A DNA stretch of 64,000 bases from Eledone cirrhosa. Its lineage: Eukaryota. Within the stretch, counting starts at the first letter, position 1. Each line of letters opens with the position of its first letter. Below, in pieces: positions 11,895-58,835 of the stretch. The notes beneath the pieces were generated by a model, which did not search any database, was not told the DNA's origin, and worked only from the letters and a program-made list of their open reading frames with translations. Made by a program: the position numbers and the translations under genes. Where the stretch lies: positions 97,526,001 to 97,590,000 of the forward strand of contig OZ024740.1 of NCBI GenBank assembly GCA_964016885.1, written 5' to 3'.

Positions 11895-12462
11895 GACACC
11901 TTCCTGTACGGCTTAATTCGGGCTGTTTGTTTACAAACAAACCGAACATTATAATAAATGTTCGGTAAACCCATACTTACATATATATATGTGTGCATGT
12001 ATGTATATATATACATACTACTGTACGTCTGTATACATATATGTATGTACGTATACATACTTATATATATATTTATATATACCCATATATAGACATTGCA
12101 TATTTTGAATATATAAAGTAACTCTACAAACTTCCCTGCTTCTATTTATTTTATCATTGCTCTAAGACCTACCAGTTTTCATTTTTTCTTTAGAGTTAAT
12201 GTATATTGTTGTGCTGGTACAACGACAAAAGTTACCCAGTACACTTGTAAGGTGGTCGTTTCAGTGTAACGATAAAAAAATCCATTGTAATGTAGTTAGA
12301 GCAAGGAAGGAGATCCAGCCATAGTAACTAAGCCAAAATAGTAACACGTTTCAGCAAGACGTGGTCTCTGGACCTGTCTTGTCTTATAACGTGACAGCTC
12401 GTCTAGCCTATTCAAGCATTGAAAGTGGACGTTGAACGATGAAGAGGATAATAATGATAATA

Positions 12463-12509
<47 letters not shown>

Positions 12510-12554
12510 TATATATATATATATATCAATATATATATATAGGGAAAAGTATGT

Positions 12555-12719
12555 CCCCATTTCGACGGCTATTTCTGGACGTCCACCAGAAATAGCCGTC
12601 GAGACGGCTTGAGCTCTGCCGTCGGGATCATACTTTTTCCTATTCACACTCTACTACCCTAAGTATTAAGTACTCTGGTGCGATATGGTCCATCTGGTTC
12701 CTTACCACAATTCCTTTGT

Positions 12720-12720
<1 letters not shown>
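12555..12720. repeat. Short hairpin-headed dispersed repeat (other copies 36988-37160 and 58615-58797)
   Basis: Shared tail actctactaccctaagtatt.agtact.tggtg.g.tatggtcca..tggt..cttaccaca, preceded by a fold-back. Confidence 0.75.
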
Positions 12721-12753
<33 letters not shown>

Positions 12754-12879
12754 TATATTTATTAAAATAACAGATTAAAGTTTAAGCATAAATCGCTGCT
12801 GTCACCCTTAACGGGATCTTCTGAAACTAACAAGTCAATCTTTGAACGCAGAAGTGAATATTTCAAAAAACGTTGCAAG

Positions 12880-13511
12880 TGGAGGTATATGATTTTTAAA
12901 GCGATGAAATACCAATGAAGGTTGGAAAATCACTGATGAAGGACTATTTTATCATATGTAACCCATGTGCAACCACGCAGTATTCATTCTTCTCATGTTT
13001 TCATATATATTTTCCCCAGCTGCGTTTGTCTGTTTCTCTCTTACTGCTTCCCCCCTCTCTCTGTTTCTCACCTTCTTTCGCCCCCTCTGTCAGTTACACT
13101 TTCTCTCGACTGGCCTCTTCCTCGCACTTCCACTCACCCACTCTCTGTTCCTCCCCTTCTCACTTCCTCCCGTTTTGCCTGAAGTGGGGTCCTTTCTTGC
13201 TCACACCTCACTCGCGTCGGACGGTCTGCTGTCTCTCGCTCATGAAATCCACACAGCTTATGCTGATCGGACTCCCATGTGCTTGTTTTTTCCTATCCTT
13301 GCGTTGTTATCCTTCTATGTTTGTTTATTTGTCTCGCTCGCTTTACGCGATTTACTTGTCCCAATAGCTTTATTTAGCTATTGCTCGCACCAACTGGAGG
13401 TATATGATTTTTAAAGCTATGAAATACCAATGAAGGTTGGAAAATCACTGGTGAAGGACTATTTTTATCATATGTAACCCATGTACAACCACGCAGTATT
13501 CATTCTTCTCA

Positions 13512-13516
<5 letters not shown>
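12880..13516 (+). mobile_element. ORF-less partial tandem unit (period 515) carrying hammerhead strands in permuted order
   Basis: 12881-13000 repeats at 13396-13514. Homologous to 57218-58105 on the minus strand. Confidence 0.7.
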
Positions 13517-13554
<38 letters not shown>

Positions 13555-13555
13555 A

Positions 13556-13596
<41 letters not shown>

Positions 13597-14428: not shown

Positions 14429-14579
14429 TAATAATAATAATAAATGTGAAGACTAAAATCCAAAGAGGGCTCGATAAGGATAAATATATATCAAATATAT
14501 AAGAACCATAGAAGATCCCGTTAAGGGTGAAAGCAGCGATTCTTTGCTTAAACTCTAATCTGTTATTTTTCATAAATAA

Positions 14580-24971: not shown

Positions 24972-25056
24972 ACTCCAACTAATTAGTTTCTGAAAGGGAA
25001 TAAACATAGTTTCCGAATGGAACAACATGGCGAAAATCCTTTCGTCATCAGGAAGT
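24972..25056 (-). ncRNA. Type I hammerhead with long stem II (inverted copy)
   Basis: Reverse complement of the motif at 25534-25618. Confidence 0.75.
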
Positions 25057-25533
25057 CTATTCTCAGCTAAGTTTCCAGGCAATGTGTGAACACAGAGAAC
25101 TTATACAAAAATAATTCAGTGGATGGAAAAAAGCAAGCGAGGACTAAATTCCAGGACATTAAAAAAATCACTGCCTACGTGGTCGGTGGCAAATTTAAAA
25201 GAATCAATCACGTGACATTGGGGTTAATCAGTGAGGAGTGGGGTGCTAATTCTTTATAATTATCTACAAATTATTTTGTTGAACAAAAATGTTCCAAAAC
25301 TACTACTATGGTTCATAGTAATAGTCAGGCTACTGTCTTATTAGCACCCCACTCCTCACTGATTAACCTCAATGTCACGTGATTGAATATTTTGAATTTG
25401 CCACCGACCAAGTAGGCAGTGATTTTTTCAATGTCCTGGAATTTAGTCCTCGCTTGCTTTTTTCCATCTATTGAATTATTTTTGCATAAGTTCCTTGTGT
25501 CCACGCATTTCCTGGGAACTTAGCTAAGAATAG

Positions 25534-49712: not shown

Positions 49713-50050
49713 CATGACAAAATGTGCTCAGTCCACTCTGTAAAGTGCTTGTGTTGGTGTCATGACAAAAGGTGCCCAGTCCACACTATAAAGTGTTCAT
49801 GCTGGTATCATGACAAAAAGTACCCAGTTCACAGTGTAAAGTGGTCATGTAGGTGTCATGATAAAAAATACCCAGTTCACACTTTAAATGTGGTTGACTT
49901 TAGGAAGGGCATCCAGCCATAGAAACAAAGCCAGGAATGATTCTGTATGAGCAAAACACTATTATCTGATCTGACTTGTCTCACAGTAGGACAACTCATC
50001 TGAACCGTGCTAGCCTAGAAAATGGATGTTAAACAGTGATGATGTTGATG
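49713..50050 (+). repeat. Four 48-bp tandem units leading into an RTE-type/SINE 3' end
   Basis: catga(c/t)aaaa starts at 49713, 49761, 49809 and 49857, followed by aggaagggcatccagcc. Confidence 0.8.
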
Positions 50051-53954: not shown

Positions 53955-55256
53955 TTAATTCATCATCATCATCATCATCATCATCATCCGCTTTTCCCTG
54001 CTTGCAAGGGTGGGACGGCTCTTATTCAGCACAGCATCTCTCCGCTCGTCACGGTCCCTCGTCATCTCCACCGTGAGCTTCAATGATCTGAGGTCTGTTC
54101 TCACCACCTCCGCCCATGTTTTTCGTGGTCTACCTCTACCACGTCTTCCTTCAACTGGCATTTCCTGGCACTTCTTCACCCATCGGTCATCCTCCATGCG
54201 CATCACATGTCCATACCACCTCAGTCTCCTCTCCCGTACACTACATTCTATCCCTCTCAGACACAGTTTCTCTCTCAACACATTTATGCTGGGTCGTTCA
54301 CGCACATTTACACTGCACATCCAACGGAGCATGCTTGCCTCATTTCTCTCCAGCTGTCGCATATCTTCTGCGGTTGCTGCCCATGTCTCACTACCATGCA
54401 GCATCGCGCTCCTCACAGAGGCATCATACAACCGGCCTTTCGTACGCAGGGAGAAACCCTTCTTCGTCAACAGAGGAAGCAGCTCCCTAAACTTCTTCCA
54501 ACCCGTCCTTATTCTAGATACTATGGCCTCGGAACACCCTCCTCCCATGCTAATCTGATCTTCTAGGTACCGGAAGCTATCCACCACTTCTATAGCGCCC
54601 TCTCGCATTTGAAAAATGTCTCTATCAGTGCGACTTCTACTGTCTAATTTCCCTGTACATCTACTGCATACATATTTCTCCCTACCTGATAGTTTGCCTG
54701 CTATCCCGCTACATCTCTTGTGTACCCAGGACCTGCATTGTGTGCATTTTATAGAATTTATGCCAGTTCCTTTTCAGCATATCGAACATGGCCATTTCCC
54801 TGGCGGAATCAGGGTTTTGTCCTCTTTTCTACTCATCAACACTTTTGTCTTAGCTAGATTTACTCTCAGTCCTCTTGCTTCCAACTGCTGTTTCCATAGC
54901 CGGAATTTATTCTCTAGCTCCTCTACTGATTCTGCCATAAGAGCCAGATCGTCAGCATAGAGAAGTTCCCATGGACAGCCAGTCTTAAACTCCTCTTTTA
55001 TGGCTTGGAGGACTATAATGAACAAGAGCGGGCTGAGGACCGAACCCTGATGTACTCCTACTTGTATCTGGAATTCCTCACTAAACTCCATTCCTACCCT
55101 GACTTCACTGAGAGTACCTCTGTACAAAGTTTGCACTGTCCTCACAAGCCATTCCTCAACACCCAGCTTCCTTAGGGACCACCAGATGACAGATCGGGGT
55201 ACCCTATCAAAGGCCTTCTCTAGGTCAACAAAGGCTAAGTATAGTGGCTTATTCAT
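53955..55256 (-). pseudogene. RTE-clade LINE, 5'-truncated RT with internal PHD-type finger; single in-frame stop
   Basis: FVDLEKAFDRV, GVHQGSVLSPLLF, YADD, KTKVL, C4HC3 finger, FRYL, RRLRWYGHV, GRPRKTW. The two listed ORFs share one frame, split by TGA at 54774-54776. Confidence 0.9.
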
Positions 55257-55286
55257 ATATATATATATATATGTTTTCTTATATAT

Positions 55287-55319
<33 letters not shown>

Positions 55320-55630
55320 AATTGGGATAATACTTAGGTATATCCTAATGTTTGTTGAGTGAGATGGAGTTGCTCGGAGTATCGCTTACGGCTTTCTCTG
55401 TTTATGTATTGTATATATATATATATATATTTATTAAAATAACAGATTAAATTTTAAGCAAAGAATCGCTGCTTTCACCCTTAACGGTGTCTTCTGAAAC
55501 TAAAAATATCAATCTATGAACGCTGAAGTAAATATTTCATAAAACGTTGCAACTGAAGTAAGACTGGAAGACGATACTTTGGTTCGTGGAAACGTTCCCT
55601 GGCAGAGAACGGAAAAAAACCGAAAATAAT

Positions 55631-57190: not shown

Positions 57191-57217
<27 letters not shown>

Positions 57218-57221
<4 letters not shown>

Positions 57222-58100
57222 TAAAGTTAGTCCTTCATCAGTGATCTTCCAACCTTCATTGGTATTTCATCGTTTTAAAGACCATATACCTCCGGTTAGT
57301 GCGAGCAACGGCTAAAGAAAGTCGTTGGGACACGTAAATAAGGGGAAAGAGCGAGACTGTAAACAAACAAAGATGGTAAAGCAACGAAACGTGAGGAAGA
57401 AAGAGTCAAGTCCCAGATTTCCATGAATATAAGTTCGGTGAAATCGTGAACGAGAGAGAATAAAGACCATCAAACCTAGTCGAAATGTGAGCAAGGAGGA
57501 ATTCCGCACAGGTCAAACGGGAGGGAGAAGGAGTCTAGTCCCTGAATTCGGTGAACATAAGTTCTGTGAAATCGTAGACAAGAGAGAAAAAGGAACAACC
57601 AGCCTGGTCAAGCGTGCGCGAGAAAATAATTATGCACAGGTCAAACGGGAGGAAGTGGGAGAGGTAGTAGCAGAGAGAGAGTGAGTGAAGGGTGAGGAAG
57701 AGGCTAACAGAGAGAGTGACTGTTAGAGAGGGTAAAGATACAGAGAAAGAGGAAGCAGTAAGAACGAAATAGACGGGTCACACGCGGAAAATATATGTGT
57801 GAATATGAAAACAAACGTGCTGCGTGGTTGCAAATGGGTTACATATGAATAAAGTTAGTCTTTCATCAGTGATCTTCCAACCTACATTGGTATTTCATCG
57901 CTTTAAAGACCATATACCTCCGGTTGGTGCGAGCAACGGCTAAAGAAAGTTGTTGGGACACGTAAATAAGGGGAACGAGCGAGACTGTAAACAAACAAAG
58001 ATGGTAAAGCAACGAAAGGTGAGGAAGAAAGAGTCAAGTCCCAGATTTCCATGAATATAAATTCGGTGAAATCGTGAACGAGAGAGAATAAAGACCATCA

Positions 58101-58161: not shown

Positions 58162-58593
58162 AAAGGATAACAAGGAGGATTGGTTACTCCTTCATTACAT
58201 TTATTGGTAGGTGACGCGCATTTCGCAACTGATCAGCTCAAGGTTCGATCTGTATCGATCTTACCCGACTCAATAATCGTCAGCTCGACGGACCCTTTAA
58301 AATGCTATAAGATTTTTAAAAAAAAATTTTTTTTTTCTTATACCATTTTAAAGGGTCCGTCGAGCTGCCGATTATTGAGTCGGGTTAGATCGATACAGAT
58401 CGAACCCTGAGCTGATCAGTGGCGAAACGCGCGTCACCTACCAATACATGTAATGAAGGAGTAACCAATCGTCCTTGTTATCCTTTCAATATATTACAGC
58501 CTGTATAGCTCTACACGTCAAAACAGACTTGAACGTAAACATCGAGTGCTCACTTGGGTGAACCTGCAGTAACTCCAAGTTACACTCCCTAGA
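58156..58593 (+). mobile_element. Fold-back element with atypical hammerhead-like motif and unpaired tail
   Basis: 58156-58312 is inverted against 58336-58492. GAAAcgcgcgTC at 58424-58435. (TA)n flanks. Confidence 0.75.
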
Positions 58594-58835
58594 TATATAT
58601 ATATATAAGAAAACAGTCAGAACCCCAACGGGTGTGCTCTGGCCGTTTCGACAGCTAGATTCTATCTAGCTGTCAAAATGGCAGGAGCTCAGTTGTCAGG
58701 GTCCTGACTCCTTTCCTATTACCCACTCTACTACCCTAAGTATTGAGTACTCTGGTGTGTTATGGTCCACATGGTATCTTACCACACTCTCTTTGTTATA
58801 TATATATATATATAAATAAATATATATATATATGT

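Follow-up and report, generated by a model that had tools for sequence, protein, structure and literature searches.

A high-copy non-coding repeat of Eledone cirrhosa with a predicted four-strand hammerhead and a Naiad-like 3' end

Positions 12876 to 13526 of the window (the whole 64,000-nt stretch of Eledone cirrhosa DNA analysed here, from contig OZ024740.1) hold a truncated copy of a high-copy, non-coding repeat. On balance we favour the reading that this repeat is a likely non-autonomous derivative of the Naiad lineage of Penelope-like elements, and that its intact units would fold on themselves into a self-cleaving hammerhead assembled from four strands. Sequence comparison gives the RNA order as X1, a hairpin, X2, a stem III extension and then blocks S, G and C, the names used by Eckert et al. 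2023, who validated natural SGC and CSG ribozymes from metatranscriptomes (PMC10085705). By the same comparison, block S pairs with both G, forming stem III, and C, forming stem I; upstream X2 pairs with the strand that precedes GAAA (helix IIb), and upstream X1 with the strand that follows CUGAnGA (helix IIa). Helices IIa and IIb and the hairpin would form a four-way junction replacing stem II, with X2 likely providing the strand stacked under the core. A kink-turn (K-turn) or a bulge would fold stem III back, its far end reaching the far ends of stem I and IIb through linkers of 1-5 nt. Cleavage is predicted after H17, at the equivalents in intact copies of window positions 12889 and 13404. 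To our knowledge, no natural hammerhead has strand exchange at stem II, and this counts against the four-strand reading.

The insertion and its repeat family

The window is AT-rich animal-type DNA, dense in microsatellites, from a 3.0-Gb genome. A first-pass annotation had reported hammerhead strands with exact stem I and stem III partners at 12884-12946, repeated at 13399-13461 with the core CTGGTGA, and the letters are as it described. Used as a genome pattern, these strands gave 7101 matches (3539+3562) against 1 (0+1) for the reversed control, so the pattern is not due to chance. Leaving the core blank gave 8643 matches, and a pattern for family C gave 591+513, each against 0 in the control. 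The annotation had also placed the strands in a 515-bp tandem. That holds for the window's family, in which units measure 500-522 nt (seven loci, L022 and L023 being one insertion), but the window itself contains an insertion of 1.26 units and no array; within it, duplication is confined to 12876-13010 and 13391-13526 (~135 nt, 94% identical), and the remainder of the 515-nt interval is single. Features of this insertion, and of a second one in the window, are listed in window coordinates.

12876..13526, plus strand: whole insertion, family A, 5'-truncated, 1.26 units of a 515-nt non-coding repeat unit
12876..12883, plus strand: remnant of copy 1, stem III extension and GA of the bend; X1 0/4 paired
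12884..12895, plus strand: copy 1 block S, with GGTAT (stem III), H17 = A at 12889, and TGATTT (stem I)
12896..12913, plus strand: copy 1 block G, with linker TTAAA, GCGA (partner of X2), W, GAAA and ATACC (stem III)
12914..12925, plus strand: copy 1, 3-nt bulge and GA (K-turn-like), then the 3' strand of the extension, GGTTGG
12927..12944, plus strand: copy 1 block C, with AAATCA (stem I), CTGATGA, a free N and GGAC (partner of X1)
13358..13361, plus strand: copy 2 X1, GTCC, pairing with GGAC at 13456-13459 (helix IIa)
13362..13383, plus strand: copy 2 junction hairpin, CAATAGCT/AGCTATTG; two-sided change in 4/8 pairs, also in the RNAalifold fold
13385..13388, plus strand: copy 2 X2, TCGC, partner of the strand before W-GAAA (helix IIb)
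13390..13398, plus strand: copy 2 stem III extension CCAACT and GGA of the K-turn-like bend; two-sided change in 5/6 pairs
13399..13459, plus strand: copy 2 blocks S, G and C; core A6 is G (13451), and one IIb mismatch (13418) gives GCTA for GCGA
13516..13596, plus strand: (TA)n tract at the 3' end of the insertion
57212..58030, minus strand: second insertion, sister subfamily, unit of 628 nt, motifs at 57959-57858 and 57331-57230

Stem III (GGTAT/ATACC, 5/5) and stem I (TGATTT/AAATCA, 6/6) are paired in copies 1 and 2 alike, and neither copy is intact. Copy 1, for which the predicted cut falls after 12889 at the triplet AUA, has lost X1, the hairpin and X2 through 5' truncation inside the stem III extension. 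Copy 2 carries the full-length motif and is likely inactive, given its A6 and IIb changes. The one-motif construct spanning 12884-12946 that had been proposed for cleavage assays is likely inactive as well, because three strands are absent from it. The second insertion has stem I TGGTCT/AGATCA and point changes in both motifs. Among family-A loci, picked by similarity, 20 of 29 have at least one copy whose core is intact and whose six helices are all paired. Family A is young. Compared with the genome, the whole insertion has 95-100% identity in the 40 scored of 2464 candidate matches.

Unit lengths are 445-643 nt in other A/B subfamilies and 753-804 nt in family C, and intermediate copies combine a family-B stem I with a family-C stem III, which makes the families one lineage. 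A single motif is present in 34 of 41 pattern-picked insertions. Copies have a common 3' part and scattered 5' cut points; several exceed one unit, and some have an adjacent inverted, truncated copy. (TA)4 lies within 160 nt after the motif in 39/41, 17/20 and 22/24 insertions, against a background of 34%, and the (TA)n tract in the window is likely the insertion target. The 3' ends of A/B copies fall at two main distances past the motif, 10-19 nt (10/39) and 50-69 nt (24/39), and these two classes match the pair of internal sites at which reverse transcription starts in the Penelope element of the anole (PMC11167929). All marks of non-autonomous Penelope-like elements were thus seen (5' truncation, partial tandems, inverted neighbours, two 3'-end classes and a microsatellite target), and they are those of the Penelope-like insertions described in PMC8557442. 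The repeat unit contains no ORF for a retroelement protein. Mobilisation would occur in trans, by a (TA)n-targeting Penelope-like enzyme that nicks (TA)n DNA and primes reverse transcription tens of nt downstream of the ribozyme; such priming would leave 5'-truncated, partial-tandem and inverted copies. A tandem transcript would be cut once per unit, or left uncut.

At 12762-12880 (compare 55453-55558 and 14510-14553), the 5' end of the insertion meets another repeat at a short common sequence. In locus L425 this neighbouring repeat continues through a similar GCAAC-GGAGG word. The junction suggests microhomology or template switching.

Strand order, helices and catalytic signature

The motif starts ~41-45 nt upstream of GGTA, beyond the interval of the first-pass annotation, which had judged stem II poor. 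Its missing partners, X1 and X2, lie upstream. Two alignments were compared. Alignment A1 holds 66 representatives of 103 distinct A/B copies (97.5% clustering, unfitted MAFFT), picked by a pattern fixing TCC, GGTATA and GA.GGA. Alignment A2 holds 34 copies of family C, made up of 32 of 36 pattern rows plus L347 and L362; L353 (unrelated), L346 and L354 (truncated) and one duplicate of L316 were left out. In A1, 95.7% of 2177 cells of the six helices are paired and 14 of 33 pairs have changed on both sides, with slid controls at 22-46%. Family C has other stem sequences, and the corresponding values in its 34 copies are 93.7%, 11 of 27, and 37-47%. Since a shuffle control keeps no relatedness, Watson-Crick switches were counted on a tree of the flanks only; the counts, which are minima on a rough tree of short flanks from 62 of the 66 copies, are 4+3+1 for stem I, 1+1+3+4+2 for the extension, 2+1+1+2 for the hairpin, 1 for IIa and 2 for IIb. 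RNAalifold, unaided, recovered IIa, the hairpin, the stem III extension and stem III. The sequence of stem III depends on the family (GGTAT/ATACC or GATGT/ACATC). A topology-only descriptor gave 137 distinct matches in the loci, which had been picked by core patterns, against 0 in 4.98 Mb of shuffled sequence.

Helix IIa is paired in 100% of cells; three of its four pairs, the inner ones, were largely fixed by the picking pattern, and the outer pair is G-C in 42, A-U in 23 and G-U in 1 of the 66 copies. Helix IIb, formed with X2, is paired in 92.4% of cells in A/B and 95.2% in family C. It is only 4 bp long in the window's family, where 2 of 66 copies have two-sided changes, both of which could stem from CpG decay. 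A rival register using the 3' strand of the hairpin pairs 250 of 264 A/B cells; it fails in a subfamily with an altered hairpin closing pair and is without an equivalent in family C. The evidence for IIb is the two alignments. In family C, the C immediately 5' of GAAA is paired with a G from X2, at the position of G10.1-C11.1 in ordinary hammerheads, and from this we infer that IIb likely takes the functional role of stem II. The GGTTGG strand of the stem III extension covaries with CCAAC upstream. The linker AA is invariant (66/66). Intact A/B copies have modest MFE z-scores (-0.7 to -2.0), and in their MFE structures stem III and its extension form a local hairpin.

A kink-turn consists of a C-stem ending in C-G, a 3-nt bulge, tandem G.A and A.G pairs, and a second stem. 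Stem III of A/B has a 3-nt bulge and tandem G.A pairs, with both pairs in 56/66 copies and L3 = U in 65/66, and by sequence this is the kink-turn signature. Family C has plain bulges and no K-turn.

Several other pairings for the stem II strands were rejected. Aligning the copies for covariation, as the first-pass annotation had advised for stems I, II and III, bore out stems I and III and left a direct stem II paired in 25-37% of cells: 34.2% and 24.8% in two A/B registers and 36.5% in family C, three registers overall. The proximal A-U pair that it had proposed dissolved in the alignment (N is A33/C13/G11/T9 and W is T37/A29 in 66 copies), and so did its distal tttta/taaag helix, the tested part of which is paired in 73.9% of cells with no covariation signal. 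An I-II helix of the type described by Eckert et al. (GGTTG with downstream TAACC or CAACC) was dropped because GGTTGG covaries with upstream CCAAC and many copies stop before the downstream partner. Rfam gave no match in the window at the gathering score, nor any hammerhead among 99 matches (E<=1) in six loci, where the ordinary type I motifs of L293 and L118 were missed too. Pattern matches in metagenome stretches (at least 119) and viral contigs (11) were chance matches, none of those listed having a 5-bp stem I.

Hammerheads cleave after an NUH triplet, with A15.1-U16.1 paired. Left unspecified and read by eye in the first 100 among the matches listed, the core has 6 scattered deviations in 600 CUGA-GA cells. 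In the same set, N7 is C in 14/100, the base after the core is other than A in 26/100, U16.1 is kept in 100/100, H17 is A in 64, C in 36 and G in 0, and 10 of 400 GAAA cells deviate, with GTAA occurring three times. A script run on 31 and 33 copies agrees with the by-eye core counts. With the family C triplets GUC, GUU and GUA, H17 overall is A, C or U and never G, and the triplets are AUA, AUC, GUC, GUU and GUA. The motif therefore has the hammerhead's core CUGAnGA and GAAA with N7 free, its NUH triplet and its covarying stems I and III, and lacks a direct stem II between the strand 3' of CUGAnGA and the strand 5' of GAAA. This core pattern is as expected if the copying lineages required a working hammerhead. 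Unlabelled public contigs, from four runs of unlabelled kind that look genomic and possibly come from the same organism as the assembly, have variants above 10% within the motif only at stem I pairs, N7, linkers and the K-turn flank, among the rows listed. Unit-to-unit joints in these contigs are uninformative about circles, and no run carrying the motif is on record as RNA. The 5' ends of the genomic copies are not concentrated at the predicted cut, as is also reported for the anole element, and this counts against cleavage: by eye, ~1 of the 35-40 distinct family-C junctions listed falls there, and a second set is likewise scattered.

Naiads and other known systems

Craig et al. 2021 described Naiads as lacking a canonical hammerhead; 9 of 54 were flagged HHR_core and 8 HHR_half_core, fitting no descriptor, with the second half 'on either side' (PMC8557442). 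Cephalopod Naiads are old remnants in that study, yet family A here is young. We parsed by eye the consensus 3' ends of a subset of the 54 (PMC8557442 File S5). At least 9 of the 54 end in the X1-hairpin-X2-S-G-C wiring: it is full in Naiad_Obim, Naiad_Ovul, Naiad_Amil, Naiad_Anas, Naiad_Aacu (two mismatches), Naiad_Plae and Naiad-2_Movir and in one Clytia and one arthropod element, and partial in Naiad_Bfor and Naiad_Esco. Hosts include Octopus, the coral Acropora, the jellyfish Morbakka and the acanthocephalan Pomphorhynchus. Naiad_Obim resembles families A/B in its hairpin loop TATTTT and its GA / AAT-GA bend, and the Octopus Naiad form has a 6-bp X2 helix directly before GAAA; judged from sequence, its motif is plainly related to that of A/B. 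Eight further Naiad ends, seven from nematodes and one from an arachnid, read by eye as type CSG with a direct stem II, and Naiads thus appear to use both non-circular orders, SGC and CSG. By eye, neither Naiad_CGi nor Naiad_EuTe has CUGAnGA at its 3' end, and no parse was obtained for Naiad-Ppla or for two Darwinula-region cores, so the motif is not universal in Naiads. The 3' end of the oyster element Naiad_CGi contains a GC-rich paired stretch, and bivalve Naiads may use another RNA motif.

No Naiad ORF lies beside the motif in 300 sequences (1.1 Mb). A narrow search of the E. cirrhosa genome with a degenerate RT pattern found none either, only two antisense chance matches, and a Naiad-type DNA pattern picked out a single old copy that has no ORF and is closer to the Octopus Naiad form. 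The window's element can therefore be a Naiad derivative at most: it shares the 3'-end RNA motif, by eye, and lacks an ORF combining GIY-YIG (N-terminal) with RT (C-terminal). The Penelope-like ORFs in the neighbourhood of the motifs were rejected as autonomous partners; they are nested neighbours with type I hammerheads of their own, and have weak Pfam matches to GIY-YIG and RVT_1 below the cut-off and no PDB match. Such ORFs, with type I hammerheads in 3' repeats, occur in L111, L115, L118 and L119, nested with other clades in (TA)n.

The order S1-S3-S2 reported by the first-pass annotation is indeed non-circularly permuted, and it has a precedent in type SGC, validated in 2023 (PMC10085705). 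What is known already is the S-G-C order; the four-strand wiring with upstream stem II partners is what appears to be new. Shared with type SGC (HRIMA-1 and SGC variants) are the order and the wiring of stems I and III, the short linker that joins stem I to the strand preceding GAAA, and the unpaired base after CUGAnGA. Type SGC has a direct stem II between blocks G and C, followed by a separate I-II helix, whereas here there are two upstream strands and a hairpin, and the G-C spacer pairs upstream as the stem III extension. No mention of a K-turn-like bend in stem III was seen for type SGC in the available part of PMC10085705. Of its 583 sequences, those seen in the published alignment are all metatranscriptome contigs, and here thousands of copies lie in an animal genome. 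Type CSG, known from two metatranscriptome sequences, has a direct stem II and an order unlike that of the window motif. In the literature covered (subscription journals and Repbase excepted), type SGC was met in Eckert et al. alone, and no paper was found to connect Penelope-like elements with permuted hammerheads, four-way junctions or K-turns.

Naiads (PMC8557442) share with these insertions the (TA)n target, 5' truncation, partial tandems, adjacent inverted copies and an optional 3' tail and, by eye, the 3'-end RNA architecture; the window's element differs in having no ORF. The C-G-S hammerheads of other Penelope-like elements, present in this genome too, also lie near the 3' end and have an unpaired base 5' of stem II, but they have a local stem II hairpin and a vestigial stem III that needs a dimer, in contrast to the long stem III and permuted order here. 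Metazoan non-LTR retrozymes are likewise non-coding units of a few hundred nt with one hammerhead each, in tandem or single (PMC7229834), and have been proposed to derive from, and be moved by, Penelope-like elements (PMC7229834; bioRxiv 10.64898/2026.07.22.740005). They are defined by type I hammerheads, the only models used in the retrozyme preprint of Li et al. (bioRxiv 10.64898/2026.07.22.740005), whereas here the motif is permuted and units of 445-804 nt occur mostly one or two per insertion. Background on retrozymes, one-base-pair stem II and pLTR is given in PMC7229834, PMC3088659 and PMC4209133, and hammerhead variants with additional helices are mentioned in PMC13725137.

The ribozyme reported missing from Naiads is likely the motif found here. 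Its supposed absence had supported the view of Penelope-like ribozymes as dispensable or parasitic (PMC8557442), a puzzle that would thereby be answered. A wider reading, which we hold to be evenly balanced, is that Naiads across phyla carry active hammerheads, all of them non-circularly permuted. Nematodes and a spider would have type CSG, and a seventh, four-strand wiring (X-S-G-C), with strand-exchanged stem II at a four-way junction and a K-turn closing the fold into a cage, would be that of molluscs, cnidarians, acanthocephalans and part of the arthropods. If so, non-circular RNA permutations would be common in animal genomes, with ~10,000 copies in that of E. cirrhosa, moving from rare metatranscriptome contigs to high-copy repeats; natural type-CSG examples would be added to the two known; and the K-turn would place a self-cleaving RNA under the control of host L7Ae-family proteins. 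Eckert et al. assume CUGAnGA to be inseparable from stem II (PMC10085705). The four-strand wiring would break this one-block rule, so that current hammerhead descriptors would all miss the class.

Alternative readings and neighbouring elements

The same ribozyme, with the same pairings, might be active only as a domain-swapped dimer across units or with a bound protein, either the element's own enzyme or an L7Ae-family protein on the K-turn. We regard this as unlikely. Covariation is blind to whether pairing is within or between units, 1-nt links between helix ends are sterically demanding, and minimal Penelope hammerheads have been proposed to act as dimers (PMC4209133), but the local hairpin of stem III and its extension in MFE structures differs from the dimer-forcing stem III of 1-2 bp. 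The kept bend and short linkers fit a single molecule, and single-unit natural type-SGC ribozymes cleave in vitro as monomers (PMC10085705). The need for a protein has its precedent in the anole Penelope hammerhead, which cuts only with its protein (PMC11167929). Of the two arrangements envisaged in the first-pass annotation, cross-unit assembly is no longer needed, and a pseudoknotted single-unit isomer agrees with the predicted fold.

A little less likely again is that a hammerhead-derived fold has been retained as a recognition or priming signal for a Penelope-type RT, with little or no cleavage in vivo. The fixed distances to the 3' ends and the scattered 5' ends would suit such a signal, as would the three GTAA variants in 100, and the anole element can insert in vitro without being cleaved, with no reads ending at its cut site (PMC11167929). 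A mere binding site would not be expected to keep catalytic rules (H17 never G, only N7 free, A15.1-U16.1 fixed) while every stem changed, nor to do so in Naiads of several phyla. We consider it very improbable that the motif is an ordinary type I hammerhead from which the downstream stem II-GAAA has been lost, chance or shared descent accounting for the pairings and the GAAA upstream. Family D, a look-alike, is exactly a type I hammerhead with an unrelated upstream GAAA, and in family B the core is followed by a local GGA-nnn-TCC hairpin. Stems I and III nevertheless covary in the permuted wiring across families and phyla, the topology-only descriptor had no match in shuffled sequence, and a family consensus with a downstream stem II-GAAA, which the first-pass annotation had named as a refutation, was not found in families A, B and C; the degenerate type I reading is already largely refuted. 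The self-folding four-strand hammerhead remains our preferred reading.

Family D (GAAACTTA), which accounts for most of 793+740 loose-pattern matches, was rejected as a relative; its type I hammerheads lie in 521-nt tandem units. Locus L363 (G000:C1:170796000-170802500) holds a separate type I family with a long stem II, a palindromic stem III and at least six near-identical 521-nt units in a row, a classic non-LTR retrozyme with a relative at window ~25040-25075 on the minus strand. Elsewhere in the window, 12540-12720 is a short repeat with the inverted repeat ATTTCGACGGCTATTTCT...AGAAATAGCCGTCGA, also seen in L114 and L119, where Neptune-like Penelope elements have it inside a hammerhead-like motif at their 3' ends. 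The imperfect inverted repeat at 58200-58640 is long (arms of ~150 nt, CTGACGA near the centre); found again in L334, it is either MITE-like or an inverted pair of another element. Two open frames at ~53960-55390, minus strand, encode a LINE-type reverse transcriptase. A short interspersed repeat containing AAGTACCCAGT-CAC, which we take to be an octopus SINE-like repeat, is present as copies and as a 48-nt tandem at 12200-12330 and 49713-49894.
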